IMG/VR virus record: IMGVR_UViG_3300028591_000199
Span: 4,163-68,162 of that record
Length of the DNA stretch: 64,000 bases
Direction: 5' to 3' (one strand)
Source: a virus
Part shown: piece by piece, positions 41,464 to 59,741 of the stretch
Layout of the letters: every line of letters begins with the position of its first letter
Numbering within the stretch: position 1 is the first letter of the stretch
Notes under the pieces: model-generated
The model's input: only the letters and a program-made list of their open reading frames with translations
Told to the model about the DNA's origin: nothing
The model's database searches: none
Position numbers and translations under genes: made by a program

Positions 41464-42436
41464 CCTCCACGATAAATTCTTCTTCTTCTTTCATCGTGAA
41501 GCCATCATTATCATACTCATCTAAATCATGTTCAGTTTGCAAATCATAAAGTGAAGCTTCATTTTGTTCAACACGATGAAGTGCATTTAAGCGTTGAGTA
41601 ATTTCGTCTCCAATCCCACCCTCATTAACATATAAACGTTGGTTATAACTTTCAATATTCTTCAAAGTTTCATCAATTACATCACGAGTAGTCCCATCAT
41701 AGAATTTGTTTTGGTGACCTCTCTTCTCAAGCCAATGTCCGACTTCTGCAAAAGAATCAAAATCAACAGCATTTTTCGTATTCTTTGGTGTAAACTCCGC
41801 AACCTTTACGAGTCTATCATAACTTGTAATAAATTTATCAACTTTCTCATCACCTGCGCGAATTCTACTATCAATTTCAAGTGAGAACTTACAAATTTTC
41901 TGCGCCTGGTCGGTTTGTAACGCGCCATTGACATTTTGAGAAGTTAGCAATCCTTGGAATAAATCCTCTAAATAATAAAGCTCATCCTCATCATAATTCG
42001 CGCCCCATTTGCGGTGCAAATCTTGAATGTGTTTCTCATGAATAAGAGGAAGCTCTTCCTCAATCATACCTCTTTCGCGCAACTCTCTATACTGCTTATT
42101 ATAATCTGCCCATCCGAGTGATTCATAACATTGATCTGCAAAGACGCGCGCGTATACAGGCCAGGTATTTTCAGTCCCATTTAATTCTTCCAATCTAACC
42201 CATTCCTTTACAATCCAAGGAATGTCAGCCCATTGACAAACTTTATCAATCCAAACCCATTCATACTCATGCGCTTTCAAAAACTCATTTACGCATCCAT
42301 TACAAATTGGTAAATGCCCATCACTAAAAAAGATTGAATGACTTACACTAAAATCTTCAAGTGAGAGATAAGTCTTACATCTCGGGCATTGCTTTCCCTG
42401 AAATGCTTTCTTTGGAATTTTTGGTTCTAATGGCAT
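41447..42436 (-). CDS. putative terminase small subunit with N-terminal Zn finger
   Basis: CPRC...PICNGC; KWG motif; acidic tail; immediately upstream of TerL; start MPLEPK chosen over the longer ORF. Confidence 0.5.
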   Translation of the reverse strand: MPLEPKIPKKAFQGKQCPRCKTYLSLEDFSVSHSIFFSDGHLPICNGCVNEFLKAHEYEWVWIDKVCQWADIPWIVKEWVRLEELNGTENTWPVYARVFADQCYESLGWADYNKQYRELRERGMIEEELPLIHEKHIQDLHRKWGANYDEDELYYLEDLFQGLLTSQNVNGALQTDQAQKICKFSLEIDSRIRAGDEKVDKFITSYDRLVKVAEFTPKNTKNAVDFDSFAEVGHWLEKRGHQNKFYDGTTRDVIDETLKNIESYNQRLYVNEGGIGDEITQRLNALHRVEQNEASLYDLQTEHDLDEYDNDGFTMKEEEEFIVEDEGDE

Positions 42437-42698
42437 TTTTCCGTTTATCCTCCTTATTGGCGGCGCATAGAATCTGATAAAGTTCACGTCTGCGCAAACG
42501 AGGCGCTCGCGCATAGGATTCCATAACGTCCTTGAACAGAATTTCAAAGGGGCGCGCAACTTGTTTGCCAGACTCGTCAACTTCATCCTCTACAAGCTTT
42601 ACACCCAATATCTTACAAACTCCTAAAAAAGTTGTAGGTTCTTGGATTTTTGAAATTTCAGTCATGAATTTCTGATTCATGCTCTTATTCTTATTCAT
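42375..42698 (-). CDS. hypothetical protein
   Basis: ORF following 42703..44016 with AGAGG SD. Confidence 0.5.
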   Translation of the reverse strand: MNKNKSMNQKFMTEISKIQEPTTFLGVCKILGVKLVEDEVDESGKQVARPFEILFKDVMESYARAPRLRRRELYQILCAANKEDKRKNAIRTKNSKESISGKAMPEM

Positions 42699-42702
42699 TG
42701 GC

Positions 42703-44016
42703 TCATTTACCTCTTTTTTCTCTCAATTTTTTATCGCATTGTTTACAACGCGGTGAAAGCCCATCTTTATTTTTAGATTTCTTCATAAAATTATTTGAAG
42801 ACCGCAATAAGGTGCGGCCGCAATCTAAGCAAGTCTTAAACTCTTCCTCAAACATTAAATTTCTAACTGTTTCTGCGTGGAGATTTGCGGTCTCTGCAAT
42901 AGTAGGTAAAATCGATTGTCTATAAAGTGTACTAATATAATTAAGTGTATAGTGACGTCCTCCAGCGGATTCGATTGCACTTACGATGCGCGCGTTGTCC
43001 CATTTTAGTTCTTTTCCTTTTAATATAATGCGCTGAAAGTCCTTTAATGGAGCGAGCGCAACATATGTATCCCACAAATCCAAGATCCATTTTAGATTTG
43101 ACTCGAGGTTTGGCTTTGATTCTGCGGCAGCCCTTAAATCTCCAAGGTGTTCAACCCAGCTTACGAGATGCGCCGGATCATTAAATTTGAAGGTGCGCGC
43201 GCATTGTGAGCCGGAACTCCAAAGCCAGTCACTTAAAACTCTAAGTTCTTCTTCTTGAAAGTCTTGAGGTTCTGGAAAACGATCTTTGCGTAGTAGTTTT
43301 GCCCATAAGTCTGGTTTATCAATAAAGCTTAGTGGTTCTACATTGATGTCTTCTCCCCATAAAAATGTCTCATCTTCGTGATAGACTGGTGTAGTCGCGC
43401 CCAGTATGCTCGGCGCATAATAATCTCTTAATGTATATTGCTGTCTTCTCAACTCAACTAATAAGTGCTTCAACTTTAAAAACTGAAACATATTGAGAGA
43501 TGCTGCGCGTTGTTTAAAGGCTTCGAGGTCTGGCGCAGAGAATCGGCTTATGAGTTTTTCGCGCGGAGGTTTGGTGCGCCGGTTGTGGTCGATTTCCCAA
43601 AATTCAATAATTAAGTCTGTCTCATCAATTTGCGCCCATAGTTGTTCGAGTTGAGCTAACAAGTTAGGCGGAGCCTTTTGTCGTGCTTCTTCGCGCGAAA
43701 ATTGGAGACGAGGCACCTTATATGCCGGTTTTGAGGACGCGCGCAGCATGGATTCGTTGAAGGTAGGGGACTCTAAAAGGGCTTCGAGTGATTCGGGTTG
43801 GGAGGAGTCCCATGTACGGGATGAGGTTTCGAGTTCGAGTCCTTCTTGGCGTCCATTTAAACCGGTTTGAGGATCTTTGCCCCATAATATATATTTACCC
43901 ATCATGTCGAGTTCTTCTTCATTGGGCGTATAAGTTATAGTTTTAAGGTAGGAGCTTACGAATTGGTTACGTTCAGGACGAGTCTGTAAGTTCCAGTCGA
44001 GTTTTAGTCTGCTCAT
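42703..44016 (-). CDS. hypothetical protein with C-terminal Zn finger (possible DNA-binding regulator)
   Basis: CLDC...DGLSPRCKQC; own promoter. Confidence 0.55.
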   Translation of the reverse strand: MSRLKLDWNLQTRPERNQFVSSYLKTITYTPNEEELDMMGKYILWGKDPQTGLNGRQEGLELETSSRTWDSSQPESLEALLESPTFNESMLRASSKPAYKVPRLQFSREEARQKAPPNLLAQLEQLWAQIDETDLIIEFWEIDHNRRTKPPREKLISRFSAPDLEAFKQRAASLNMFQFLKLKHLLVELRRQQYTLRDYYAPSILGATTPVYHEDETFLWGEDINVEPLSFIDKPDLWAKLLRKDRFPEPQDFQEEELRVLSDWLWSSGSQCARTFKFNDPAHLVSWVEHLGDLRAAAESKPNLESNLKWILDLWDTYVALAPLKDFQRIILKGKELKWDNARIVSAIESAGGRHYTLNYISTLYRQSILPTIAETANLHAETVRNLMFEEEFKTCLDCGRTLLRSSNNFMKKSKNKDGLSPRCKQCDKKLREKRGK

Positions 44017-44058
44017 TTTTAGGTATATATTGTACTCCTAAGTCTATTTTCTGAATTT

Positions 44059-44087
44059 ATTATACACAAATTTGGGGGAGAATGCAA
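44059..44087 (-). promoter_or_regulatory. sigma-A-type promoter
   Basis: TTGCAT-17 bp-TATAAT on the minus strand. Confidence 0.6.
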
Positions 44088-44396
44088 ATTTTCGGGCAAG
44101 CAGGTTTATAAGTAGAGCATATAGGATGAAATTTTAGGCGAGGGATATAAAATGAAAATTTTATTTCGATGGGAATTGTTTCCAGGGCAATTTCCAATTT
44201 TTACCAGTATTTCCAAAAATCCCAAAATACACCCCCCTAGTTTTGGAAAATCTTGGAAGCATCACTTTGTTACTTCCATATATTGGAAATGATGCTGCTG
44301 AAGCAGTACCCTCCCCTCGCGCCCGCCCTCTCAAAGATATAGAAGCTAAAAAAGGAAGGATTTCCAAATCCTTCCAGCAGTCCACTTGTTAAATTT

Positions 44397-44582
44397 TTAA
44401 CGATGTCTTCTTTGCACCACTTGCACCACTACAAGCGCAATTAAAGCAACACAAAGCGCAATTAAAAGCCCAATCACGAAGACTTTGGTAGAAATTTCCA
44501 TTGACTCCACGAACGCGCCGAGCATAGCAAGAATGGTAAATATTGCCACTACAACCAATATACGAGATAAGAATGATTTCAC
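44397..44582 (-). CDS. small two-TM membrane protein
   Basis: Two hydrophobic stretches; SD AGAGAGGG; promoter TTGAAA-17-TATACT. Confidence 0.6.
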   Translation of the reverse strand: MKSFLSRILVVVAIFTILAMLGAFVESMEISTKVFVIGLLIALCVALIALVVVQVVQRRHR

Positions 44583-44647
44583 TTTTCAAGCCCTCTCTTT
44601 TCTTTTATTACTATAAGTATAACATAGTTTTAAAACTATTTCAAGTT

Positions 44648-45097
44648 TTAGTTATTGATATACTTTAAGATTGAAACAAGTTCGGTTGCATTGTACGCAA
44701 GGTTAGCGCGACGATTGCACCATTCAAGACGGTTCGCATATTCGTCATCGAATAAGATACCCTCTCTGCCATTGCCTTTCGGTGTGCCGTAAGGTATAAT
44801 GTCAATGTGAGTAAAGTTTACGCTTGCGAGGTGTTTACGAAGCCATTTGATTTTTGCTTTTGCAACTTCGGCATTGTATTTTGCATTTCCATTTTTTGCC
44901 GTCCAAGATACAATATTTATTTCGTATCCCTTGCGATTTGCATTGTTGAGAAGTCTTGCGAGAGATTGAAGATTGATAAGTCCTTTTGCTTCGGTATAAG
45001 GGCGAACCCTCTCGGCGTTCAGGTCTTCAAGCCAGCCGTTGACCGCGTAAAGGTCTGCTATCGTTCCGTCCATATCTAACCATATTGCCTTTATCAT
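44648..45097 (-). CDS. HAD-family (5'-nucleotidase-like) phosphatase, copy 1
   Basis: LDMDGTIADL, SW, K, ILFDD. Confidence 0.75.
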   Translation of the reverse strand: MIKAIWLDMDGTIADLYAVNGWLEDLNAERVRPYTEAKGLINLQSLARLLNNANRKGYEINIVSWTAKNGNAKYNAEVAKAKIKWLRKHLASVNFTHIDIIPYGTPKGNGREGILFDDEYANRLEWCNRRANLAYNATELVSILKYINN

Positions 45098-45208
45098 TGT
45101 TGTTACCTCTCTTTCTATATATAGTATATCACAAGTAAAGATATATGTCAAGGATATAATACAATGTTCATAAATTGTTTACAATTGCGCACCCGGGCGC
45201 AACCGACT

Positions 45209-45226
45209 TTGTTAAATATTTAACAA
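45209..45226. promoter_or_regulatory. Rex-box-like palindrome TTGTTAA-N4-TTAACAA (also 45899-45916; near match 44386-44403)
   Basis: Perfect palindrome matching the clostridial Rex consensus. Confidence 0.55.
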
Positions 45227-45297
45227 TCACTTTAGTATGGTAAAGTACTAATATAATAATATTTTAATATGGTAAAGTATTACTATAAAAGAAAAGT

Positions 45298-45741
45298 TCA
45301 AGCCACGCAGGACTTGAACCATTCTCTCATCTGTTTGCTCTCGCACTTACAACGGACTTTCATTCCACCGCCGTTCTTATCGCTTTCTCTTTCGAGATTA
45401 CCGAACACTCTCAAGAAGTTGGCGAACTCTGTCAAGGTCATTATGTAGGCGGTCAGGTCATTCGTTACATAAGCGACTTGTGTGCTTGCCGTGCGCGCCG
45501 TATAATCGTTGATTTTTTCTTCAAGCGTTTCGCCGTAGTTAAGTCTTGCACTCACAAGAGTAAATCTTTCGCTTTTTACACTCATTTTCAAGGATTTGAT
45601 ATCACTGTCTATGTCGAACGGAACACTGTCTTTTGCGTGTTCGGTTTCGCCCGCGATTTGAAGAGCGACAAGGCGTTCTTTCCATTCGCCTTTATTTTCG
45701 TTTGCGTATCTTTCCATATATTTCATCTGAATTGCTTTCAT
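45298..45741 (-). CDS. hypothetical protein (possible PD-(D/E)xK-like fold)
   Basis: Own promoter TTGACA-17-TATACT and SD; SDI..SVKS motif. Confidence 0.6.
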   Translation of the reverse strand: MKAIQMKYMERYANENKGEWKERLVALQIAGETEHAKDSVPFDIDSDIKSLKMSVKSERFTLVSARLNYGETLEEKINDYTARTASTQVAYVTNDLTAYIMTLTEFANFLRVFGNLERESDKNGGGMKVRCKCESKQMREWFKSCVA

Positions 45742-45975
45742 TGTGATTCCCTCTCTTTCTTTCTGTATATAGTATATCATACTACCGGTATTTTGTCAAG
45801 AGAAAATCAAAAAGTTTTTATTGTCAATATATACAAAATTAGAGGTGAGATTTTGTGCATATTGACTAGTTGGACCCGGGTGCAAGACGAAACCGACTTT
45901 GTTAAATTTTTAACAAGGGCACTCCGACCCGGGTCAAAATACCCGGGCGCGAAAAAGCGGATTATTAGTCCGCTT

Positions 45976-46188
45976 TTACAATTCGAGACCTATTCCGTTG
46001 AACACACTCCAGCCTTCTCCGATGGTGTAGAGATAAAGAACTTCGCCAGTCAAACCATCAATCATTATAACTTCTTTTGCATCCTCGGCAGCGGTAAAAG
46101 CCTTAAAGTAGAAAATTGCGAGTTCCTTATCTATAACTCTTTTAATAACTTCTTTACCCTCATAAGTTTTTACTGAAATCTGAAACAT
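45976..46188 (-). CDS. small hypothetical protein
   Basis: Promoter TTGATT-17-TATAAT, SD AGAGAGGT, terminator AAGCGGA/TCCGCTT. Confidence 0.7.
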   Translation of the reverse strand: MFQISVKTYEGKEVIKRVIDKELAIFYFKAFTAAEDAKEVIMIDGLTGEVLYLYTIGEGWSVFNGIGLEL

Positions 46189-46437
46189 ATCTTTTAACCT
46201 CTCTTTCTTGTACATTTATATTATACTATAAAAGAAAACAAAAATCAAGCACTATAAGAATTGTTTACAAAATGTTCACACTTCCGCGCCGAGTACCCGG
46301 GTCAAAATACCCGGGCATAAGGGTAGTTCTTATGGTAAAAATTGGGAATATGTATGAGTTCCATAAAATAATTATTTTACGGAATTCATCGCGCAAAAGA
46401 AAACGCGCGCAGAAGCGCACGCTTTCTCTATTGGTAT

Positions 46438-46788
46438 TTATTTCCAGCCTTCCATCCATCCACTATATCTAACGGAAATAATTTCATCGTCTTTGATGTC
46501 TTCAGTGCCTTTACTGTCGAAAATTATTGAGCAAATGTCACCGATTTCCCAATCTTCGCCACTCTCTTCAAGATAGAATTGCCAAAGATTACCATTAAAA
46601 TCTCTTACTGTTACAAGGTCATTTGCTTCGTGGATTTCTTCGACGATTGTAGCGAGCGGATAAAGATTATTGAGCATTTTGTCATTATCTTTTTCAAACT
46701 TTATTATTGTAATGACTGTTCCAATAAAGACGGCAAGTATTAAGACAAATGCAATAATAAGCGCGATACTTTGTTGCTTGTTTAACAT
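46438..46788 (-). CDS. hypothetical protein with N-terminal TM/signal anchor
   Basis: Hydrophobic N-terminus; SD AAAGGAGAG. Confidence 0.7.
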   Translation of the reverse strand: MLNKQQSIALIIAFVLILAVFIGTVITIIKFEKDNDKMLNNLYPLATIVEEIHEANDLVTVRDFNGNLWQFYLEESGEDWEIGDICSIIFDSKGTEDIKDDEIISVRYSGWMEGWK

Positions 46789-46806
46789 TGTTTTGCTCTC
46801 CTTTTT

Positions 46807-47010
46807 TTAGTAAATACGAATTACCTTTTCGACTTCACGACCGTCTTCATCTATAACCATATCAAACTCCGCGTCGGCGGTGAGCCAAAGGTCTTCATTC
46901 TTATAATCCCAGCCTTCATTCGCGGTATAGTCATCATAGACTGTCACGCGCAAGTCGCCGTATTTTGCCTTGAGTGCTTCGAGCTTTTTAATCATTTCAC
47001 TAATGGTCAT
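46807..47010 (-). CDS. small hypothetical protein
   Basis: Promoter TTGATT-17-TGaTATAAT; SD AGAGAGGT. Confidence 0.7.
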   Translation of the reverse strand: MTISEMIKKLEALKAKYGDLRVTVYDDYTANEGWDYKNEDLWLTADAEFDMVIDEDGREVEKVIRIY

Positions 47011-47305
47011 TTTGTTTACCTCTCTTTTCTTCTGTGATTATATTATATCACATAAAAAGTTAAAAATCAAGCATTATCAAAATTGTTTACAAAATGTTCA
47101 CATTTTCGCGCCGGGTCGCGCGACCCGGGTACGGACCCGGGTCTGGGATTCACCCGGGTCCGCGCTTTAGCGTGGTAAAGTGCTAAAGTGGCGCAGCCTG
47201 CGCGCCTATAAAAAGCGGTTAGCCTACGCTAACCGCCTATATAATCGCGCTCGCGCCGAGGTAAAGCGTTTGCGCGCTGTCTGGTAAAGGTTGGAAGGCA
47301 GATTT

Positions 47306-47674
47306 TTAATCTGCCTTCGCTACGCGTTCAGCCTTCATCTTGGCTTTGGCTTCGCGCTGTGCCTTATCGCGCGCTATCTTGCGCGCCTTTGCCTCTGCGC
47401 TTTTCTGCGCTTTTTCGGCTTTTTCCGCGACCTTCATCGCGTAACTGTCCGCGACGGAATAACCGTCATAGACATCGCCCTCACGCGAACCCGTAGGGAC
47501 TTTGAAGGTGAGAACGACAAATTCATCGTTGCCTTCATCATCGACACAAGGGAGCGCGATTTCGTTCGAGTTAGTCACAAGGACTTCCTCGCCCTGCCCT
47601 TCAAGGTAGGAGCGCACCGCGTTCATATAACGCGCGCGGAGAGTTTCGTGGAGAGCCTTTTTAGAAGTTGCCAT
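47306..47674 (-). CDS. hypothetical protein with Lys/Ala-rich tail (paralogue of 53956..54312)
   Basis: GEEVL-TNSNE, VLTFKVPTGSR-GD-YDGY shared. Confidence 0.75.
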   Translation of the reverse strand: MATSKKALHETLRARYMNAVRSYLEGQGEEVLVTNSNEIALPCVDDEGNDEFVVLTFKVPTGSREGDVYDGYSVADSYAMKVAEKAEKAQKSAEAKARKIARDKAQREAKAKMKAERVAKAD

Positions 47675-47834
47675 AGAGAACACCTCACTTTTCTTTTACT
47701 GTAATAATTATAGCACAAAAGTTTTAATTTGTCAAGTACTTTTTCTCAATTTCTATAATTATTATATCATAATTTTTTAAAAATTGCAAATTTGTTAAAA
47801 TTTTCCAGTGCCCGGGTACGTGTAGATTTTAAAT

Positions 47835-48080
47835 CTACACGTATAACATTATGAGAAAATAGACATTCAAGGCAACATTTGCCAAGTGCATTATCAACCC
47901 ATTGATGTGCCTATCTACGGTTATATCCTTAATGATACCGATAAGAGCAACGGCAAGACCAAACCAAGCAATAGACAAGCCGTAAATCATAATCAGTATG
48001 ACATTAATTACAGTTATAAACGCGCGCAAGTCATTCCATTCAAAAGTATATGCTTCGTGAATACGGAAAAATTTCTTCAT
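47835..48080 (-). CDS. small membrane protein
   Basis: Hydrophobic 81 aa; SD GAAAGGGG. Confidence 0.65.
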   Translation of the reverse strand: MKKFFRIHEAYTFEWNDLRAFITVINVILIMIYGLSIAWFGLAVALIGIIKDITVDRHINGLIMHLANVALNVYFLIMLYV

Positions 48081-48182
48081 TAATTTTTACCCCTTTCTTT
48101 TGGTATATATATTATAATATACAGATATGAACTAGATATGAACGAAATGTAAACATTTTTCGCGCCCGGGCGCGCCTTGCAG

Positions 48183-48623
48183 TCAGGTCAGCGACCGCAA
48201 GACCGCAAGGAGATTTTTTTCATCGTAGGCTTTCCCTCTCCATTCAAGGCGATTGTTCAATTCGTCATCGAACAGAATGTCGTTTACAGAGTGGGCAAAA
48301 GTGCTTTTCGGCGTGCCATAATGGGCGATATGAATTTCATTAAAGGTAACGGACGGAAGGTGCTTTTTCAACCACTTTACTTTAGTAGTATGTACCATTT
48401 TATCATAAGAGTCGGACGCATTTTTGCTTCCCCAACTGATAATGCCGATATTATAACCATTTTTCTGTAATTTTTTCAAAATTTTTGCAAAATGTGCAAA
48501 ATTTACAAGAGGTTTTGCAATTTTATAGGGACGAGGATTTTCTGCCCTTAATTCTGTAAGCCAATTTTCATAACCATAAAGATTGGCGATTGTTCCATCC
48601 ATATCAAAGAATATTGTAGCCAT
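48183..48623 (-). CDS. HAD-family phosphatase, copy 2
   Basis: FDMDGTIANL, WL-KHL-SV-F, YGTPK, ILFDDE; paralogue of 44648..45097. Confidence 0.75.
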   Translation of the reverse strand: MATIFFDMDGTIANLYGYENWLTELRAENPRPYKIAKPLVNFAHFAKILKKLQKNGYNIGIISWGSKNASDSYDKMVHTTKVKWLKKHLPSVTFNEIHIAHYGTPKSTFAHSVNDILFDDELNNRLEWRGKAYDEKNLLAVLRSLT

Positions 48624-48794
48624 TCATTTAAACCCCTTTCTTTTTCTATAATAATTATACTATATTTTTTGAAAAAAGTCAAGAAAAATTTTCGATTGTT
48701 TACAATTTGTTCATAAATTCGCGCGGGGTACCCGGGTGTTATACACCCGGGCGCCGCTTTAACGCATTAAAGCGTTAAAGCGGTGGTTGAGCGG

Positions 48795-49139
48795 TCACTC
48801 CGTTATGGAGTAACCGTTTACCTTGCCCTTGCCTTTGACCTTGACATCAGAGGTTACGAGCAGACCTTCCTTTTTCAACTGCGTAGCAAGCGCGGAAGCC
48901 TTTGCGGTAGTGATACCGAGTTCGGTTGCGAGCGTGGAAGCGGTAGTCTGTCCGTGTTCACGGAGATACGCGACGATTGCTTCCTTGATAGGAGCATTTG
49001 CGATTGCCGTCTTGCTCGGCTTACTTGCGCGCGAAGTGTTGCGCTTGTCGAGTTTTGCGATGGCGGCGGCGGCGAAATCTTTGAGTTCGTCGGATACTGC
49101 GCTTTCGGTGATGGCGGTGAAAAATTCGCGATTAGTCAT
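48795..49139 (-). CDS. winged-helix DNA-binding-like protein (paralogue of 54717..55073)
   Basis: MTNREF.., TAS-LA-ELGI--KA--L--L--EG-L, VKV-GKGK--GY. Confidence 0.65.
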   Translation of the reverse strand: MTNREFFTAITESAVSDELKDFAAAAIAKLDKRNTSRASKPSKTAIANAPIKEAIVAYLREHGQTTASTLATELGITTAKASALATQLKKEGLLVTSDVKVKGKGKVNGYSITE

Positions 49140-49483
49140 AATAGACCTCTTTCTCCCACTCTTTCGCGGTGGGCGCGTAGTTTTATTTTCGAGAGGGATT
49201 ACTTACTTCCCTCATCGTGTCTATATTATATCACACTTTTAAATGTTTGTCAAGGGGTTTTTGAAAAGTTTTTCAAAAATTTTTTCAAGTCTCGATTTCA
49301 TCAAGCAGTTACCGCGGAGTTTGCTCTTCTCTTTTTCCCTTGCCCCTTGACATTATTAATTATACCATAAGGCGCGTAAAATTACAATAGGCAAATTGCA
49401 CAAAGATTCATATCTTTAATTATTAATATTGTGCAAAATGACGGACGCCCGGGCAGGTGGTAATTTTTACCAATAGACTTAAA

Positions 49484-49847
49484 CAAAAAAGCGCAAAGAC
49501 ATAACCTTATGGCTTATCTTTGCGCTTTTAGTCGATTTTTTGTTATTGACTTTGATAGTGTAACCCCGCACAAAGTCTTCTCTGCAAATCGTAAACAGAT
49601 GTAGAAGTAAGGGGGCAATTCCTACTGATTTCTACTCCGCAAGAAACAACATTTAAGCCAAGCAAACAAATCCGCGCCCATTTTACAATTCTTTTTTTAG
49701 TTTTTCGATAACTTAGGGGAAAGAAACAAATGAGAGACCTAAGACCCTATAAACGCCACTTACATCACTTTTTTATAGTCGAGAGTTTAACAAGCAGTAG
49801 ATATTCTCTCCGTAGTCTATAAGGTAAATGCGCACTTCCCTTTCGAC
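49484..49847 (-). ncRNA. putative structured non-coding RNA occupying one cassette
   Basis: Promoter TTGTAA-17-TGaTATAAT (49854-49882), no ORF over ~20 aa seen, several hairpins, terminator 49487-49529. Confidence 0.5.
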
Positions 49848-49973
49848 ATTATTATTATATCACTCTTATAAGAAAATTACAATAGGCAAAATAAATAAAA
49901 TAAAATGAAAATTTGGTATACATTTTGTATATTTTGACGGTGCCCGGGCGAAAACCCACCTAATAGGTAGGTT

Positions 49974-50162
49974 TTACTTGAATGCTCTCCACTCTATTTC
50001 TTCGCGTTTAATCTCATACTCACACGGCGGCATAGATTGAAGCGTACAAGATGGAGTGTCATCATCTGAAAGGCGCAATGGACACGTTTTACAACTATTG
50101 TGAGTTCTGCAAGTCGTTTTAATACAATCAAGTGCCTCAAGCAATATTTCTCTGTCTGTCAT
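49974..50162 (-). CDS. small Cys-rich protein
   Basis: C..C...C..CPL..C; GAGGAG SD; terminator AACCTACC/GGTGGGTT. Confidence 0.65.
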   Translation of the reverse strand: MTDREILLEALDCIKTTCRTHNSCKTCPLRLSDDDTPSCTLQSMPPCEYEIKREEIEWRAFK

Positions 50163-50165
50163 TTT

Positions 50166-50297
50166 TTACTCCTCTGTATTAAAATATTTTTCTTCAAATT
50201 GTTTTATTTCTTTTGCTTCTTCTTCGGTGAAAAGACCTATCGCAAGAGCAAAATCAAGGTATTGTAAGATTGTACAAAAAATTTCATTTTTAGTCAT
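50166..50297 (-). CDS. 43-aa hypothetical protein (MTKNEIFCTILQYLDF...)
   Basis: Read manually; promoter TTGACA-17-TATAAT and GAAAGGA SD. Confidence 0.55.
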   Translation of the reverse strand: MTKNEIFCTILQYLDFALAIGLFTEEEAKEIKQFEEKYFNTEE

Positions 50298-50421
50298 TTT
50301 ATCTTTCCTTTCTGTTTTCTTGATGTATATATTATATCATATAAAAATAATTTTGTCAAGTAGTAAAATTGTAAATAAATTATGAACGTCCACCGGGGCG
50401 AATACCTACCAAGATGGTAGG

Positions 50422-50748
50422 CTATCTGCCATTTGTTGCCATTTCATCTTTCTGCGGAGGGAAGCCAACTTTTGTTTCCATACAAAACTTCCAAGGGTCT
50501 TTATCCTCATCTACTGCATATTCATCAGATTCGGTGTTTTGCATCCAAAAATCGGGGTCTGCTTCCGCAGGTTGGACAAAATCACTTTGAGAAAACTCAT
50601 ACAAGGCATTGCTAACATTTTTCGCGGCTTTATGAATTTCTGGATTGCTTGCGTTGACTTCAATAGTAGTAAAGAGTTCCATTGCTCTACGGATAATATC
50701 GAGTTCATTTTCAGAAAGATAAAGCGTTTCAGATTTTACAAAGTTCAT
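50422..50748 (-). CDS. hypothetical protein
   Basis: Promoter TTGACT-17-TATAAT; SD GAAAGGA; terminator CCTACC/GGTAGG. Confidence 0.7.
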   Translation of the reverse strand: MNFVKSETLYLSENELDIIRRAMELFTTIEVNASNPEIHKAAKNVSNALYEFSQSDFVQPAEADPDFWMQNTESDEYAVDEDKDPWKFCMETKVGFPPQKDEMATNGR

Positions 50749-50868
50749 TCTTTTTAATTCCTTTCTATTTCTATAATAATTATAGTATATTTCTTTAAAG
50801 AAGTCAATAGTTATTTAAAATGTTTACAAAATGTTCACATTTCCGCGCCCGGGCAAATACCTACTTTT

Positions 50869-51045
50869 TTAGTAGGTATCCAATCCTTCGGCGTCGGCTT
50901 CTTCGCGCGTCACTTCACGCAAGAAAATAGCATTATCAAACCATTCACTTGCAAGGCTTATTGCTTCCACTTTGTCTATTGCTTCGACGAAAAATTCTTC
51001 TCCACTATCACGGTCGACAAATTTAAAAGTTTTTTCTATTGTCAT
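50869..51045 (-). CDS. 58-aa acidic protein (MTIEKTFKFVDRDSGEEFF...GLDTY)
   Basis: Read manually; SD AAAGGGAG. Confidence 0.6.
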   Translation of the reverse strand: MTIEKTFKFVDRDSGEEFFVEAIDKVEAISLASEWFDNAIFLREVTREEADAEGLDTY

Positions 51046-51072
51046 TTTTAATTTCTCCCTTTATTTTATTTC

Positions 51073-51210
51073 TTATAGGACTTCTCTTGTTAAAACATAA
51101 CCATTATATAGTTCTGCTTGTTTCTTCGCATCTGCGTAATGATAATAAACATTATTTACTGTCCATGCCTCTTCATAACCATCATAATAAAATACAATAT
51201 AAACATTCAT
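51073..51210 (-). CDS. 45-aa protein (MNVYIVFYYDGYEEAW...), copy 1
   Basis: Read manually; near-identical copy at 53285..53422. Confidence 0.65.
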   Translation of the reverse strand: MNVYIVFYYDGYEEAWTVNNVYYHYADAKKQAELYNGYVLTREVL

Positions 51211-51215
51211 TTTTT

Positions 51216-51419
51216 TTATTCCTCATCTTCTTCTACTTCGCAATCATCATAATAACATCTTGCAACAGGATAACGCATATCTGCTTCAAAATGTCCATAT
51301 GCTTGGTCAATAGCCATATCTTCAAGGTCACTTTCGGGTAGGTCTTCTTCGTCTTCGGTATCGACTTCAACGTGATAGGTATAATTCTGTGTAAAAGTTA
51401 CTACATATTTCTTTTTCAT
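51216..51419 (-). CDS. small acidic hypothetical protein
   Basis: Promoter TTGACA-17-TATAAT; SD GAAAGGA. Confidence 0.7.
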   Translation of the reverse strand: MKKKYVVTFTQNYTYHVEVDTEDEEDLPESDLEDMAIDQAYGHFEADMRYPVARCYYDDCEVEEDEE

Positions 51420-51530
51420 TATATTTTATTTCCTTTCATTTGTTATATTTATTATACTACATAATCAAATATTTGTCAATAGAAAAATTGTAAACAATTT
51501 ATGAACAGTGCCCGGGCAACGACTGGAAAA

Positions 51531-52010
51531 TTATTCCAGTCGAGGGTCTCCGAGGTCTGGCGCGAGATATTTTTCAAGCAACCGTGCAAGAAGGCAATGA
51601 GATTGTACAAAGTCGATTGCCCATTCGGTGGCGTGCCATTCTTCGGGGAGGTCAAAATACATTTTTGCAAGTTCGGGATTTGCCTGTGCTTCTTCTCTTG
51701 AATATATTGAGCAAACGATTTTAATAAATTCAGTCTGTTCGGTTCTTCTAACAAAATCAAGTGTAAAATAATGTCCTATTTCGTGGAGAAGTGTCCAAAC
51801 CGAAAAAGGTACTGTTAAAACTTCCCCACATTCGTGACTATGTTCAAGATGATAAAGAAAACCGCCGTCAGTGTCGGGACTTACATCTTCAAAGTCAAAA
51901 TTAACTTTATGTTCATCTTCATCATACCAATTACCGTTTCCCTTTTTAAAGGTCACGCGCAATTCGGGAGCGATTGAGCGCACAATACGACGGATTTTTC
52001 TTTTATTCAT
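51531..52010 (-). CDS. putative zinc metallopeptidase (HExxH)
   Basis: LLHEIGHYFT and downstream LPEEWHATEWA; paralogue of 59252..59737. Confidence 0.6.
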   Translation of the reverse strand: MNKRKIRRIVRSIAPELRVTFKKGNGNWYDEDEHKVNFDFEDVSPDTDGGFLYHLEHSHECGEVLTVPFSVWTLLHEIGHYFTLDFVRRTEQTEFIKIVCSIYSREEAQANPELAKMYFDLPEEWHATEWAIDFVQSHCLLARLLEKYLAPDLGDPRLE

Positions 52011-52162
52011 AGGTTTTATATTTCCTTTCAAGTTTTAGTTTTCTCTCTTTCTGTATTTATTATATCATAATTAAAAAGAATTGTCAATAGTTTTTATAGA
52101 AAACTTTTTACCAATTTTTACCTGCGCGCACCGGGCGCACCCGGGCGCGGACTGGTAGAATT

Positions 52163-52882
52163 TTACATTTCTACCAGTTCTGCGAAAACTTCGGTGAGTT
52201 CCATTTCTTTCCTTTTTCTCTGCGGAATGAGCCAGCAAGCGGAATAAATGCGGTCATCATACTCTTTTCCACTATTTACCACTTCAAGGAAAATTTCGGT
52301 TTCAATTTCAACATCTTCCAAACCCGTATGACTTTCTATAAAGTTTATATTTTTCGTTATATATTTATAGGCAGTTTCGGCAGAGGTGGAAATATTTCCC
52401 TTTTCACTCATAAGTCCGTTATCAAGGGCAAAGCGGACAAAATGTTCGGTATTAAGAATAGAAGAACAAGCCATATTCCAAATATCAAAATATTTCGTAC
52501 CATAAGGGAAAAACCATTTTACAAGTGAAGCGGTGATATAATTTATATCGTTTCGTGTTGCTCTGCGGTCAAACCCCATATTATACGCGCCGACTTTTTC
52601 GACTTTGTAGTTCTTCATATCTGCGCTTATTTGTTTGCGAATGTTACAAATTACCTTAATTTCGCGCTTGCCGTTTTTGATTTCTTTCCAATAAGTGGGA
52701 ATTTTTTCAGCATAGTAAGCACTCGACATTAACTCTTTATCAAAAAAAATTTCAGCGACCACAAAAGAACGCTTTACCAAAATTTGGCTATTTTCTACAT
52801 TTACGATTGCGTATCCTATATCATAAGGAAGTGGTTGCTCTATCGTGTTTGCGGTTTCGGTATCAATAATCAGTACATTCAT
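52163..52882 (-). CDS. DEDDh 3'-5' exonuclease (DnaQ-like)
   Basis: IIDTET, AYNMGFD, HTGLED motifs. Confidence 0.8.
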   Translation of the reverse strand: MNVLIIDTETANTIEQPLPYDIGYAIVNVENSQILVKRSFVVAEIFFDKELMSSAYYAEKIPTYWKEIKNGKREIKVICNIRKQISADMKNYKVEKVGAYNMGFDRRATRNDINYITASLVKWFFPYGTKYFDIWNMACSSILNTEHFVRFALDNGLMSEKGNISTSAETAYKYITKNINFIESHTGLEDVEIETEIFLEVVNSGKEYDDRIYSACWLIPQRKRKEMELTEVFAELVEM

Positions 52883-53026
52883 TTTTTTAGTTCCTTTCCT
52901 CAACTGACATTAATATTATACTACTATAAGAGAAAAAAGTCAATAGGGCAATTTGCACAAATTTTTGTATAGTTTTTTGTGCATATTGCTTCGCGCCCGG
53001 GTGAAAACCCACCAAGATGGTAGGTT

Positions 53027-53254
53027 TTAGTTTTCTTCAATCTCATCAACGAAAACGTCACGAAAGCCGACAAACTTGTAAACTTGCTCCCATTGAAGTT
53101 GTTTACCGCATTTACGGCAGACGCCCACACATTTTTCGACTAATGCGTTTTCACCCTCAATCATCGCGCCCTCAAGGTCGTAAATGTCCTCGGAATGAAT
53201 GCGGTCGCTACCGCAGTTGGGGCATTTAAGGTCAGGATATAACTTTCTTTTCAT
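53027..53254 (-). CDS. small Zn-ribbon protein
   Basis: CPNCGS...CRKCG. Confidence 0.65.
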   Translation of the reverse strand: MKRKLYPDLKCPNCGSDRIHSEDIYDLEGAMIEGENALVEKCVGVCRKCGKQLQWEQVYKFVGFRDVFVDEIEEN

Positions 53255-53284
53255 TTTTTTATTTCCTTTCTTTGATTTTGTTTT

Positions 53285-53422
53285 TTATAAGACTTCCCTT
53301 GTTAAAACATAACCGTTATAGAGTTCTGCTTGCTTCTTTGCGTCTGCATAATTATAATAAACATTATTCACTAACCACGCTTCTTCATATCCATCATAAT
53401 AAAATACAATATAAACATTCAT
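53285..53422 (-). CDS. 45-aa protein (MNVYIVFYYDGYEEAW...), copy 2
   Basis: Promoter TTGACA(53476-81)-17-TGcTATAAT; SD AAAGGAG. Confidence 0.65.
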   Translation of the reverse strand: MNVYIVFYYDGYEEAWLVNNVYYNYADAKKQAELYNGYVLTREVL

Positions 53423-53612
53423 TTTTTATCTCCTTTTTTCTTTTGTAATAATATTATAGCACATTCTTTTAAATTTGTCAATACTCTAAATTGTAAATAA
53501 ATTATGAACAGGTTGCACCCGGGCGCATTCACAATTTGTTTACAAATTTCTTCTTGACAATTCCAAAGGAATGTGATATAATAAATACATCAAAAGAAAG
53601 GAATTTAAAAAA

Positions 53613-53834
53613 ATGACTTGTGCAGAAATTTATAAAATGATAACCGAACACACTGACTACTTATCTGTTTTTATTTGCGCCAGAAATTGGGCAAACACAG
53701 ATGAGGGCATACTGATTGCCGATAATATGGAAAAAGATATTTTCTATCGCCTTTTTGGAGATAAAATCCCCACCGATTGGCACCTTTGTTGCAACAATGA
53801 CACTGGTTGGGTTGAGTTGGGCTTTCTTTTCTAA
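53613..53834 (+). CDS. small hypothetical protein
   Basis: Promoter TTGACA-17-TGaTATAAT; SD GAAAGGA; terminator then CCCGGG. Confidence 0.7.
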   Translation: MTCAEIYKMITEHTDYLSVFICARNWANTDEGILIADNMEKDIFYRLFGDKIPTDWHLCCNNDTGWVELGFLF

Positions 53835-53955
53835 AATCTACCTTAAGGGTAGGTTTTGCCCGGGCGCCAGCGTTCATAAATTGTTTACAAATTCCCTCTT
53901 GACAAAATCTCTAATCTATGATATAATAAGTACAAACGAAAGAGAGGTAAACCCT

Positions 53956-54312
53956 ATGACCAACAAAAAGTTCGATCCTATTCGTTCCACCCTTATGCAG
54001 ACAGTATCCGATTTTCTCACCGAGAAAGGCGAAGAGGTCTTGCGCACCAATTCCAATGAGGTGTGTATGCCTATCGTGTCCGCCGACGGCGACGAAGCAT
54101 TCCTTGTCTTAACTTTTAAAGTCCCGACAGGAAGCCGAGATGGTGACCCTTATGATGGTTATGCCATCGCCGCCGATTATAAGGCAAAGTGCCTTGCCAA
54201 TGCGGAAAAGGCACAGAAAAAGGCGATTGCCAAAGCGCAGAAAATCGAGCGTGACCGCAAGATTCGAGAAGCCAAAGCAAAAGCCAAAGCCGAAAGAGAG
54301 AAAACCCAGTAA
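53956..54312 (+). CDS. hypothetical protein with Lys/Ala-rich tail (paralogue of 47306..47674)
   Basis: Promoter TTGACA-17-TGaTATAAT; SD GAGAGGT; shared motifs. Confidence 0.75.
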   Translation: MTNKKFDPIRSTLMQTVSDFLTEKGEEVLRTNSNEVCMPIVSADGDEAFLVLTFKVPTGSRDGDPYDGYAIAADYKAKCLANAEKAQKKAIAKAQKIERDRKIREAKAKAKAEREKTQ

Positions 54313-54397
54313 ACTACTGGGTTTTTCTCATGCCCGGGTATTAATTCGAGGCATTTCTACCCGGGTACTTCCACCCGGGGCGTGACAGACCGGGCGC

Positions 54398-54600
54398 TTC
54401 CAAATTTTACCAATACTGTCAAATTCTGATGGCTTCCAAAATTTTCCAACGACCCCCAAATTTTACCATTTTAAAAAATTTCAGGCAGCTGTAAATTTTC
54501 AGGCAGCTGCAAACTCTATGAGCTGGAAAAATTTTCCAGGAGCTCCAAATTCTGGCAGCTGCAACTTGCTTATCAGCTGCGCCAGGCAGCTGGAAATTTG
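54398..54600. repeat. imperfect tandem repeats CCAAATTTT(A/T)CC and AAATTTTCAGGCAGCTG
   Basis: CAGCTG at 54486, 54504, 54556, 54574, 54587; GAGCT at 54520 and 54540. Confidence 0.75.
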
Positions 54601-54678
54601 AAATGCGCGCAAAATTATGCTATATTTTATACCATAAATTTAAAAGAAAATCAAATTTTAAGCGCATCTAAAAAAGAG

Positions 54679-54699
54679 GCTGGCGCGAAAGACGCCAGC
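54679..54699 (-). terminator. intrinsic terminator
   Basis: GCTGGCG-CGAAAGA-CGCCAGC with T run on the minus strand. Confidence 0.7.
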
Positions 54700-54716
54700 T
54701 TCTAATCCATATTTAC

Positions 54717-55073
54717 TCAGGCAAGAGCGTATCCAACCTGCTTGCCCTTACCAGTAACCTTAACCTGAGTCTTAACAAGAGTGCCATCCTCAACCAGACC
54801 CTTAAGGAGAGAGGGCATCGCCTGAGGCTTAATCTCTACGCCAGCCTCTGCAATCAGAGTGGTCGCAGTCTTAGGCTCAGCGGTCATCACATTCATAATT
54901 GCCTCACGAATGGGCGCGCGAGTAGCTTCCTTCTCAGCGGCTTTCTTCGCGGAAGCCTCTCTGCGCTTACCATTAGTTGCATCGAGCTTCTCGATAGCAG
55001 CCTCAGCAAAAGCAGTAAGTTCGTCGTTCAGATTTGCGTTTACGATAGCGGTGTAGAATTCTCTGTTGGTCAT
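54717..55073 (-). CDS. winged-helix DNA-binding-like protein (paralogue of 48795..49139)
   Basis: MTNREFY.., VKVTGKGKQVGY; own promoter TTGCAA-17-TATAAT. Confidence 0.65.
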   Translation of the reverse strand: MTNREFYTAIVNANLNDELTAFAEAAIEKLDATNGKRREASAKKAAEKEATRAPIREAIMNVMTAEPKTATTLIAEAGVEIKPQAMPSLLKGLVEDGTLVKTQVKVTGKGKQVGYALA

Positions 55074-55202
55074 TTTGTTTTCTCCATTCTCGTGTAGGTC
55101 ACGACCCTTAGTTTAATTTATTTTTATGGGAGAGGGTTTAGGATTTCCCTCTCTCTTTCTTACATATATATTATATCATAGTTTTAAAACTTTTGCAAAT
55201 TT

Positions 55203-55694
55203 TTAGATGATATCGTCCGTTGTAGGATGCGCGCTACATTCACGTCCATAATAGACATACTGGCTGGGATCCAACCTCCAAGAGGGCGCATCTTCGTCTT
55301 CAGTCCAATACTTGGTGTCTGCGGCTTCTTCGCACATATCTTCCAAAAGCTGGAAAAATCTCAGAGCCTGCGCGGCATTCTCTTTCTCGCGCGCTGCTTC
55401 TTCAAGCTCGTCATTACATTCGCGTACTCTTTCCATTTTTTCTTCAAGCGGATTCTGCGCACGTTCTATAAAAGAAAGATATTCATGAATTGTTTGAGCT
55501 TGTCTTTCATAGAAATGAATGTCTTGTCGCGCGGCTTCTATCCATGCGCGCAAAGTATCTTTTGAAAGCGGTTTAATATGCCCATAAGGCGCGCCCTGTA
55601 CAAATTCTGCTACTTTTGAAGAACTAATATAGGTAGCGATAGGAAGAAACTCATTCTGCGGTGTTTTTATGAAGAACTGAGTATATTGAGCCAT
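55203..55694 (-). CDS. hypothetical coiled-coil protein
   Basis: Promoter TTGCAA-17-TGaTATAAT; SD GAAAGGG. Confidence 0.7.
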   Translation of the reverse strand: MAQYTQFFIKTPQNEFLPIATYISSSKVAEFVQGAPYGHIKPLSKDTLRAWIEAARQDIHFYERQAQTIHEYLSFIERAQNPLEEKMERVRECNDELEEAAREKENAAQALRFFQLLEDMCEEAADTKYWTEDEDAPSWRLDPSQYVYYGRECSAHPTTDDII

Positions 55695-55757
55695 TTATTT
55701 TTATTCCCTTTCTTCTTTTCTATATATATTATATCATAGTTTTCAGGTTTTTGCAAA

Positions 55758-55880
55758 ATTTTTAGGATTTTTTTCGATTTTTTTTGAAATTTTTGGAATT
55801 TTTTCAATTTTTTTTCGAATTATTTTTGGATTTTTTTGGGATTTTTTGAATTTTTTCTGGCTTTGAAAAAATTTTTTCAG
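55758..55880. repeat. phased T-tracts (~10-11 bp period)
   Basis: About 11 T5-T8 runs separated by short GGA/CGA/GAA-type spacers. Confidence 0.75.
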
Positions 55881-56564
55881 AAAATTTGCTTAATGAGAAA
55901 ATATGCGCCAGAGCTCATACAACCTTTTCCCAAAATTCAAGAAGTCATTTCACAAAGTCCCAAAATTAAGCCAGTCAAACCCCAAATCCCGTGCGCGCAT
56001 AGACCCCAATTCTTGTACGAAAAGACCGCCGACGTCAAGGATGGGCTCCCGAAAGCAAAACGCCAATTCACATTATAAGCCGGCTTAGGCGCCAGCGTAG
56101 CCTTTTGTCCGCTGGGACCCGTCTACTTCACTCCCTTATAAGTTATACTTATAAGCTGGCATATATGCTGGCTTCGACTTCCTTCTTATGCCTTTTCCCT
56201 ACGCCTTTTTCTTCTACGCCTTTCTTTTCGGTCTTCGACCTAGCTAGCTTTCAGGGCGCGCGAGACTCTTTTCACTACTTTAGCTTCGATTTTCCCCTAT
56301 AATATTTTACTTATAAGCTGGCTTATAAGTTTTCGCTTATAAGTTTTCGCTTCTATTTCCCCTTACGGGTTCTGCTTAGCTGTTTCCGCTGGCGAGATCC
56401 CAACTCGCGCTTCGCGCTCGTAGCGATTCGCCGCTCAGCCAAATTTTAGATTCTTTGAGGAAGCCATTTGGATGGGACTGGCTTTTATTATTATATATAT
56501 TTTTCTGCTTACATTATAAATGTAAACTTTCGTTTTTATTTCTCGAAAATTTTTAGTACCAAAG

Positions 56565-56978
56565 TTAAAATTTTTCGTCTATAATTACATATCCGCGTTC
56601 ATATTCCCATTCAAGGCGCGCGGGTGTAAAAATCATAATGAATCCGAAGGTTTCATCAAATCTTGAGATTGCATTGGTCTTTTTAAATTCTTCCCATTTT
56701 ACTGAAAGTGAGGAATTATATCCTTCCCAAGATGTGTAGGAATCCCATAAATAGAGTTGCGCCTCTTCAAGAGTTTTGAAGATACGATTTGGACAAGGGT
56801 CTCTATTTTCTTTATCAAAGATTACTACACCATATAAGTAGGCATTCTTTTCTTGCTTACTTGGCGCGCGAAGGGTATTTTCATTTGAATTAGTTGATGT
56901 ATTCACGAGTATAGTCACCTGCCTTAAAGTTGTCGATGCGCGCAAGCCATATTTTTCCTGTATTACATTCATAAACAT
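56565..56978 (-). CDS. hypothetical protein (start uncertain)
   Basis: ORF track; overlaps the upstream ORF. Confidence 0.4.
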   Translation of the reverse strand: MFMNVIQEKYGLRASTTLRQVTILVNTSTNSNENTLRAPSKQEKNAYLYGVVIFDKENRDPCPNRIFKTLEEAQLYLWDSYTSWEGYNSSLSVKWEEFKKTNAISRFDETFGFIMIFTPARLEWEYERGYVIIDEKF

Positions 56979-57365: not shown

Positions 57366-57441
57366 AATAGTTCTCCTTTCTTTTATATTTATTATATCAT
57401 AGCTTTAAATAAAATGCAAATATTTCTAGAAAAATTTTTGA

Positions 57442-59737: not shown

Positions 59738-59741
59738 AGGT

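Follow-up and report, generated by a model that had tools for sequence, protein, structure and literature searches.

The window analysed here is a 64,000-nucleotide stretch, bases 4163-68162 of a single 68,162-base IMG/VR virus contig (IMGVR_UViG_3300028591_000199, designated G000 among the genomes compared), which comes from an uncultured siphophage of roughly 115-125 kb with a terminase of the SPbeta YonF type. Between positions 44190 and 54480 of this window lies a block of 10,291 bases, 6561 of them coding and 3730 (36%) non-coding, in which about 22 small genes are arrayed, preceded by promoters of the sigma-A consensus type, and which is almost free of several four-base palindromes. The contig is classed as linear, its ends show no overlap when compared with each other, and its completeness is estimated by CheckV at 59%. 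Judged from the promoters, the Shine-Dalgarno sequences and the relatives, the host is probably Gram-positive, and the host group appears to be gut Firmicutes. A megablast search of the block against INPHARED returned zero matches.

Twenty of the small genes (43-239 aa), called from start codons and Shine-Dalgarno sequences, occupy 44397-53422 on the minus strand and point towards the terminase gene. The other two, encoding 73 and 118 amino acids, lie at 53613-54312 on the plus strand, in the orientation found in relatives, and are purged as well. The two sets are separated by a divergent promoter region (53423-53612) with a perfect 12/12 promoter on each strand, at 53481-53453 (minus) and 53554-53582 (plus). 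The unit of the array is a cassette made up of a sigma-A promoter with a TG-extended -10 element, a strong Shine-Dalgarno sequence, a short open reading frame (ORF) and a hairpin containing CCCGGG; a Shine-Dalgarno sequence of the AGGAG/GAGG type precedes every called array gene. In a consensus scan of 43000-58000, 84 promoter-like sites were found, compared with 38.0 +/- 5.7 in shuffled sequence. Eight perfect TTGACA-17-TATAAT (12/12) promoters and six that match at 11/12 fall inside the block, while the other 4.7 kb scanned contains one site at 11/12; minus-strand sites that match at least 11 of the 12 consensus positions number twelve. Because these sigma-A cassettes are self-contained, the host polymerase could read the array once the DNA is inside the cell, and the 14 promoters of at least 11/12 in the block, together with the strong Shine-Dalgarno sequences, uphold the earlier proposal of an early gene array driven by host RNA polymerase.

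Six words were counted in the block: GATC (1 occurrence), AGCT (2), CATG (2), CTAG (3), ACGT (6) and GGCC (0). The GATC at 53974 is the sole one between 43872 and 55268. AGCT occurs only at 44344 and 46982, and is next seen at 54487, the first of seven copies within 54487-54588. The whole window holds 128 GATC and 146 AGCT; at the rate of the rest of the window, 24.3 and 27.6 would be expected in the block, and a maximal-order Markov expectation gives 18.8 and 14.8. The original prediction, made by scanning the letters, had claimed a single GATC, a near-absence of AGCT, tens of each expected from base composition and a dense AGCT cluster just past the right edge. All of this is confirmed by the counts, and the observed-to-expected ratios of both words are far lower in the block than elsewhere. 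The purge is also wider than was then seen, as it extends to CATG, CTAG, ACGT and GGCC. Among the 136 strand-symmetric 4-mers, the five most depleted are the palindromes GGCC, GATC, AGCT, CATG and CTAG. Taken together, the six words have a density of 1.36 per kb inside the block and 9.87 per kb outside it. The steps in density are sharp, at about 43970-44350 and 54330-54487, and the likelihood optimum of the low-density interval is 44350-54320.

Palindromes used as controls do not follow this pattern. Neither TCGA nor ATAT nor TATA is depleted in the block, the effect on TCGA, GTAC and TGCA is small, and enrichment is seen for CGCG, GCGC and CCGG, in the last case because CCCGGG sits in the terminator stems. 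In the 23 long genes at 284-44016, CGCG (165 versus 77.8 in synonymous shuffles, or 2.1x) and GCGC (210 versus 87.2, or 2.4x) are in excess as well; along with GGCC at 0.29, this excess is a genome-wide signature, and it is weaker inside the array.

Since more than a third of the block is non-coding and its genes are short, low counts could in principle arise by chance, or as a by-product of codon usage, short genes and AT-rich intergenic DNA. Synonymous-codon shuffles of the 22 called genes (1000 shuffles, with the block's own codon usage and amino acids kept and the intergenic DNA fixed) gave means of 19.7 for GATC, 15.3 for AGCT, 18.6 for CATG, 19.8 for ACGT and 12.3 for GGCC, as compared with the observed 1, 2, 2, 6 and 0, and for each of these five words none of the 1000 was as low as the block. 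For CTAG, with 3 observed and a shuffle mean of 8.2, 7 of the 1000 were as low. GATC, AGCT, CATG and CTAG add up to 8 in the block, where the shuffles have a mean of 61.8 and a minimum of 42. In the 3730 non-coding bases, 7 six-word sites are present versus 49.7 +/- 6.4 in dinucleotide shuffles, of which 0 of 300 were as low; the non-coding DNA is thus purged too, which indicates that the purge acts on DNA as such and not on codons. Given these shuffles, the palindromic nature of all five of the most depleted 4-mers and the near-normal counts of the same-composition palindromes TCGA, GTAC and TGCA, an origin by chance or codon usage is rejected as so improbable that it can be neglected.

Avoidance of the same words is only mild in the 23 long genes outside the block, where observed/shuffled ratios are 0.67-0.81 (0.29 for GGCC). 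Beyond the right edge there are two further sigma-A-type cassettes, encoding 118 and 163 amino acids (54717-55694, minus strand), with TTGCAA-17-TATAAT promoters carrying TG at 55198 and 55756. These are unpurged: 18 six-word sites occur in 54481-55760, or 14 per kb. Because cassettes so similar to those of the array carry this many sites, the purge tracks position and not promoter class.

Both edges of the purged zone are non-coding. The left edge (44017-44396) contains the promoter of a neighbouring sigma-factor-like gene, CCAAWWTTTWCCA boxes at 44194 (plus strand, exact) and 44244 (minus strand, 1 mismatch), and the terminator that closes the array (44375-44354, minus strand). At the right edge, a region of about 400 nt (54313-54716) contains three exact CCAAWWTTTWCCA boxes, at 54400, 54436 and 54456 (an exactness that is circular, since the motif was derived from its own instances), followed by CAGCTG-type repeats that hold the seven AGCT of 54487-54588, and it is at this iteron cluster (54398-54588) that the purge ends. 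The original prediction regarded two similar 18-mers, at 44192-44209 and 54398-54415, as marks of termini. They are indeed identical at 16 of 18 positions, and a search that allowed up to 3 mismatches gave 4 matches, including the query, versus 0.17 expected. However, they belong to the small CCAAWWTTTWCCA box family found at both edges, and so they point to putative shared binding sites, not to termini. When the two edges are aligned pairwise, there is weak likeness outside the 18-mer.

Further to the right, outside the purged zone, lies a repeat-rich non-coding region (55740-56560) with TTTTTTGGAT-type and GCTTATAAGTTTTC repeats and 11 six-word sites versus 13.6 expected; a repeat run resembling it is present in the complete relative G007, at 85650-85760. 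When the two edges and this region were compared with 12 relatives by local alignment, only the left edge aligned (scores 28-85), and up to about 44270 it aligns with the equivalent region of relatives L001 and L047. A search for DnaA boxes gave 20 versus 18.7 expected, with no cluster, and a further motif, TTTCAGGCAGCTG, was present in 1 of 112 loci, that of G007 only.

The gene for the large terminase subunit (SPbeta YonF type by tblastn; 39658-41463, minus strand) was the anchor for comparisons with relatives. In IMG/VR, 84 relatives were confirmed and 80 loci kept, with terminase identities of 49-83%; six of the relatives are classed complete, at 112-127 kb. For each locus the array side was tested for depletion against the terminase and structural side (p<0.01). 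CTAG is depleted on the array side in 18 of 32 testable loci, AGCT in 14 of 40 and GATC in 4 of 20, and in no locus is any of these three enriched there. Depletion was also found for GGCC (3/38), CATG (1/40) and ACGT (1/40), and for the controls TCGA, GTAC, TGCA and CCGG in 0 of 35-40 loci. In G007, where the only dense promoter cluster is at 72-84 kb, AGCT occurs 0, 1, 1, 2 and 5 times per 2 kb in that region versus about 7 elsewhere, and CTAG 0 times. Local purging is recurrent in the family and the set of purged sites varies by lineage, as would be expected if different hosts impose different enzymes.

The array of G000 differs from those of its relatives in orientation. Compared with G007 by tblastx, both flanks are collinear. 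Collinearity reaches 43834 on the side of the terminase, and two genes on the far side have retained their orientation: the one at 54787-54918 and the final plus-strand gene of the array (53974-54192), which matches G007 83720-83935. Every G007-homologous cassette in 44777-52804, by contrast, is reversed and reordered relative to the G007 array region (72.9-84.2 kb). In G007, as in G000, the CAGCTG cluster (84260-84400 in G007) flanks the array on its far side. By the strict consensus, array promoters point away from the terminase in 39 of the 41 relatives with enough upstream sequence; of the remaining two, one has a single promoter that points towards it and one is tied. The promoters of the G000 array point towards the terminase, that is, they are flipped relative to the 39. 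The block sequence was present in a single public run, labelled as a sheep gut metagenome, which may be the source sample and which was examined as Logan contigs. Such contigs bridge 41190-45085 and 53398-55180 without any difference, which rules out misassembly of the IMG contig as the source of the flip.

Of the proteins encoded in the block region, 20 were scanned in PHROGs and 10 in Pfam. Two minus-strand paralogues resemble 5'-deoxyribonucleotidases of the HAD/NT5C type: the product of 44648-45097 matches PHROG 2643 (E 1.7e-7), with Pfam NT5C below the cut-off, and that of 48183-48623 matches PF06941 above the cut-off (E 6e-6, 26.7 bits) as well as PHROG 2643 (E 1.2e-11). A winged-helix, MarR-like DNA-binding protein is predicted at 48795-49139 (minus; Pfam MarR_2, E 1e-4, below the cut-off; PHROG 142 and 2440), and the gene at 54717-55073, beyond the right edge, looks like a paralogue of it, with similar N-termini. 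The largest product, of 239 aa (52163-52882, minus), has no Pfam family match and matches only one PHROG, of unknown function; its lone PDB sequence match, 8jol_C (E 0.79), was taken as chance. Its AlphaFold model (pLDDT 80.6) was matched by Foldseek to RNase T, Exonuclease X, ExoI and 3'hExo, with E values from 3.5e-5 and TM scores of 0.5-0.6, and D7, E9, D105, H185 and D190 are invariant across 8 homologues. The model thus predicts a DEDDh (DnaQ-like) 3'-5' exonuclease fold in which the catalytic D, E, D, H and D are conserved.

Several array products are small and very acidic, among them those of 50422-50748, 50869-51045 and 51216-51419, and three look membrane-bound. The 67-aa product of 51216-51419 (minus strand), with a net charge of -17, a pI of 4.1 and no family match, is a candidate DNA mimic or anti-restriction protein. 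A PADLOC match to a Cas12c model on 1 of 10 proteins (E 0.0084, 11.7 bits) was taken as chance. The array also contains a direct repeat of 156 nt (51060-51215 and 53272-53427; 88% identical, with an exact 37-mer), which carries two nearly identical 45-aa genes at 51073-51210 and 53285-53422.

The first gene outside the purged zone on the terminase side encodes a 437-aa protein (42703-44016, minus strand) whose C-terminal half is sigma-factor-like (PHROG 5767 'sigma factor', E 7e-11, residues 275-430). It has a normal density of sites, with GATC at 43084, 43176, 43281 and 43872, and its host-type promoter (44088-44059, minus) is conserved in relatives. A possible role of this protein is to shift transcription away from the array and onto the packaging and structural operon. 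Weaker HNH, endonuclease VII and Lar-like matches, at about residues 366-436, overlap the end of the sigma match. As a query for related loci, the protein gave 9 pattern matches, none of which was confirmed. Elsewhere the window encodes RecJ, DNA polymerase III alpha, a nucleobase permease, siphovirus tail proteins and a 2603-aa ORF. The permease is a xanthine/uracil permease family protein (12903-14183; Pfam PF00860, E 1e-52) and adjoins nucleotide-metabolism genes.

Some features of the relatives stand apart from the purge. AGCT clusters near their arrays are heterogeneous, some being within genes, and a tRNA T-arm-like motif, GGTTCAAGTCC, occurs in an AGCT-rich stretch by the arrays of L063 (5240-5300) and L042 (5430-5460), where it may be a tRNA remnant. 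The terminase gene of G004 (locus L015, 127.6 kb; gene at 6075-7871) is interrupted by 9 TAG codons in frame, a sign that part of the family may recode TAG; such recoding is described for phAss-1 in the available part of PMC10607447. In G001 (L076), G002 (L075) and G003 (L050/L086) the terminase gene is matched in 2-4 separate pieces over about 2.5-2.8 kb, some with TGA between them, which suggests introns, inteins or inserted genes.

Taken together, these features make it probable that the block is the first-exposed, immediate-early host-takeover array of a gut Firmicutes siphophage of about 115-125 kb. The lack of sites is real, strong and bounded by position and, as the original prediction held, it is best explained by restriction pressure of the kind that acts on T5 first-step-transfer DNA. 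The DNA of the array would be exposed to host restriction enzymes before the phage makes protection for its remaining genome: the array might be the first part to enter, with a pause at or close to the iteron cluster, or it might be the only part that has to remain intact for long enough to be expressed. Selection on this unprotected DNA would have removed sites in the array and only mildly elsewhere. With the predicted exonuclease and nucleotidases, the phage would degrade host DNA early and manage the nucleotide pool, a parallel with T5 that relies on unrelated proteins. Self-methylation is not seen as the protection, since DNA methyltransferases of three common families (PF00145, PF01555 and PF02086) are found neither in G000, at 59% completeness, nor in the complete G007. 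Dam-like (PF02086) methyltransferase genes do occur in two complete relatives, G010 (100850-101425) and G005 (52487-53035), and G010 is also the relative that has no GATC purge in its array.

Several observations weigh against the block being such an early array shaped by restriction. A methyltransferase or other protection gene could sit in the missing part of the G000 genome. The depletion counts across the family come from related loci and so are not independent events, and ACGT is enriched on the array side in 11 of 40 relatives and depleted in 1 of 40. The complete G010 has no clear promoter array by the strict pattern, and upstream of its terminase there is no purge of GATC or AGCT, only few CTAG. 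In 39 of 41 relatives the array points away from the terminase, whereas here it points towards it; tolerance of such a flip speaks against T7-like, transcription-driven entry and fits a mechanism that is independent of orientation. In tetranucleotide usage the block is the most atypical 10-kb window (r 0.87 versus 0.91-0.98), and r is still 0.86 when palindromes are left out, which implies some compositional difference independent of restriction sites.

This last point would also suit a different origin, in which the purge was inherited and not selected in place: the array would be a mobile module that related phages exchange and that was shaped in other hosts or genomes, and the doubled depth would come from a second, co-occurring phage carrying it as well. 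The scrambled cassette order and flipped orientation relative to G007 and the 39 of 41 relatives indicate that the array rearranges freely, many diverged cassette homologues are present in the same sample, and breaks of the sample's contigs at both depth steps (described below) fit a segment common to two contexts. However, the relatives' own arrays are locally depleted in different sets of sites, a sign that selection is ongoing and local, and not of a single state passed on by inheritance. The block also shares the genome's odd excess of CGCG and GCGC, and the purge stops at the iterons although similar cassettes follow. Exact-pattern scans of IMG/VR and of JGI metagenome contigs turned up no second contig with the array, a weak point because a shared segment would collapse in assembly. 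On balance an inherited module is quite unlikely, and local selection on an array exposed before the rest of the genome is preferred.

It is possible, though rather doubtful, that the block is in addition a long direct terminal repeat of the T5 or SPO1 type, about 10.3-10.8 kb in length and collapsed to one copy in the assembly. Its termini would be near 44.2-44.4 kb and 54.5-55.2 kb, and it would enter first and stop at the iteron cluster; the repeat would span the left non-coding region to just past that cluster, and the purged part would be the stretch up to it. Depth was taken as one mean k-mer value per Logan contig, laid over 40001-60000. It is 11.3 at 40001-41219, 13.8 at 41190-45085, 21.5 at 45057-51208, 23.2 at 51186-53420, 21.5 at 53398-55180 and 12.5 from 55152 onward. 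The two contig breaks within the array, at 51.2 and 53.4 kb, are due to the 156-nt repeat with its exact 37-mer. Over about 10.1 kb the array is therefore at 1.7-1.9x the depth of its flanks, as a collapsed two-copy repeat would give, and with an inside depth of 22 and flanks of 11.9, the value of 13.8 would place the left step near 44.35 kb. The size fits the repeats of T5 and BF23 (9.7-10.2 kb) and the terminal region of SPO1 (12.4 kb), which hold early takeover genes, and the genome size of the family, 112-127 kb, is also compatible. The same CCAAWWTTTWCCA box family is found at both edges, and an untranslated repeat cluster at the inner end recalls the iss region of T5. The relatives assemble as circles with overlaps of only 55-127 nt, which a collapsed repeat would also produce.

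The depth steps themselves are less easily accommodated by a terminal repeat. They coincide with contig breaks at 45057-45085 and 55152-55180, one in a conserved HAD motif of a nucleotidase gene and the other in a cassette promoter. These are branch points of the graph and not within-genome repeats, so other sequence joins there, whereas a collapsed terminal repeat would give a simple cycle without branches. The contig at 53398-55180 spans 54480 at full double depth, which places the right step near 54.7-55.2 kb; a step at 54480 would require an inside depth of about 27, versus the measured 21.5-23.2. The sample holds many related sequences (584 records matched the region, 361 of them at only 90-95% likeness), and a second phage sharing the array could be among them. 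An invertible segment was considered as well and rejected: with both orientations present, the array would still have the same depth as its flanks, and a search for long inverted repeats on either side of it gave none.

Packaging in phages with related terminases also speaks against a long repeat. In tblastn, 146 INPHARED records match the terminase, the best being Geobacillus virus E3 (41.6%); others include Enterococcus phages, Tsamsa-like phages, Lactococcus 949, Brevibacillus Sundance and SPbeta (yonF), all at 25-42% identity, which makes the terminase a weak proxy for packaging type. According to the available parts of the published descriptions, such phages have repeats of 284-285 bp (Tsamsa, Thrax1-5) or 323 bp (Sundance), or are pac-type (SPbeta). 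The matches listed (55 of 146) are all of the SPbeta, Tsamsa, 949, E3 or similar types, and no T5-like or SPO1-like phage appears among them or in the tallied first words of organism names. The phAss-1 record was opened with PhageTerm, and the available text of its description names no type of end. No repeated ends or repeat features were seen in 15-17 kb stretches of KKP_3916 and Geobacillus E3, the ends of E3 not being directly compared. One further line was set aside. Contig ends of relatives that cluster about 2.2-3.1 kb upstream of the terminase are not taken as physical ends, as G001 and G002 break there in short tandem repeats and the overlaps of all six 'DTR' records examined, only 55-127 nt long, are assembly closures. 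Of the original prediction of a direct terminal repeat of about 10.2 kb, then, the near-doubling of depth survives at the level of contigs, but a right terminus at 54480 does not, and the branch-point steps and the short repeats or pac-type packaging of terminase kin count against the remainder.

A close parallel to the G000 array, in organisation though not in genes, is with T5. According to the available text of PMC10644984 and 10.1101/866236, T5-like phages resist restriction-modification systems unless sites lie in the first-step-transfer DNA. As in T5 and BF23, the host polymerase would transcribe a segment of about 10 kb of small early genes in a siphophage whose genome measures about 115-125 kb, and, as in T5, restriction sites are locally absent from the early segment while the rest of the genome retains them (1.4 versus 9.9 per kb). 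The untranslated repeat-rich region at the inner edge, here the iterons at 54398-54588, which are conserved in G007 and lack DnaA boxes, may correspond to the injection stop signal of T5. T5 has A1 and Dmp, and functions of early DNA breakdown and deoxynucleoside monophosphate (dNMP) dephosphorylation are suggested here by the predicted DEDDh exonuclease and the two NT5C-like proteins. No homologues of T5 A1 or A2 were found by family annotation among the scanned block-region proteins, and tblastn of an NT5C-like protein returned no T5-like record, so that the NT5C-like proteins would be functional analogues of the dNMP phosphatase. Unlike T5, this phage has a different terminase family and polymerase (DNA polymerase III alpha), a presumed Gram-positive host and no cluster of DnaA boxes, and any terminal repetition or two-step entry is putative.

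The SPO1 module resembles the array as a cluster of small genes with strong sigma-A early promoters and strong ribosome-binding sites in a Gram-positive host. SPO1 is a myovirus with hydroxymethyluracil DNA. Its 12.4-kb terminal region, according to the available part of PMC6873191, contains some two dozen small early genes whose promoters and ribosome-binding sites are of the highly expressed type. PHROG matches of the block proteins include no annotation as SPO1 genes 37-60, although no dedicated comparison with SPO1 was made, and no report of a local restriction-site purge in the SPO1 module was found in the portions of the literature available. In T7 the early promoters face the interior of the genome, and DNA entry is assisted by transcription. 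The array of G000, by contrast, has the opposite orientation to that in 39 of 41 relatives, with no visible ill effect, and its function seems independent of orientation. For the T7-like Autographiviridae, the accessible part of PMC12455610 indicates that the leading, first-expressed part of the genome decides restriction sensitivity. With SPbeta, Tsamsa/Tyrovirus, Lactococcus 949, Sundance and E3 the phage shares its terminase, DNA polymerase III alpha, a very long tape-measure protein and a genome size class; unlike here, no purged early array is reported for that group in the parts of the literature available.

The principle is thus known from T5. What is new is its appearance in a family of uncultured Firmicutes siphophages with SPbeta-type packaging genes, along with the purging of six words, the box-marked edges and the flipped array. 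No description of the array of this phage family was found in the literature, in a search that was not exhaustive. A more specific model, which is unlikely to hold in full, is that siphophages of about 115-125 kb with SPbeta-type terminases, as a whole lineage infecting rumen and gut Clostridia, use staged entry of the T5 kind built from unrelated parts. The array would then be a terminal repeat of 10.3-10.8 kb and the first DNA to enter, the CCAAATTTTACCA / CAGCTG iterons would be the stop signal, the early DEDDh exonuclease and dNMP nucleotidases would break down host DNA, and an early product, perhaps one of the very acidic small proteins, would shield the rest of the genome from restriction.

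Local loss of sites reveals, directly from sequence, the part of a genome that faces host nucleases unprotected, and for phages that are not amenable to culture it thus gives a clue to the order in which their DNA enters and is expressed. The signal in G000 is very clean, with a seven-fold step and edges defined to within a few hundred bases. Three leads follow from it: the two box clusters at the edges as candidate cis elements, a short list of early proteins with a possible role in countering restriction or degrading host DNA, and a prediction for read mapping. They concern entry, early functions and anti-restriction in a group of large gut and rumen phages. If staged entry is indeed what shaped the array, purged early islands would be a sequence-only marker of staged entry across phage lineages.

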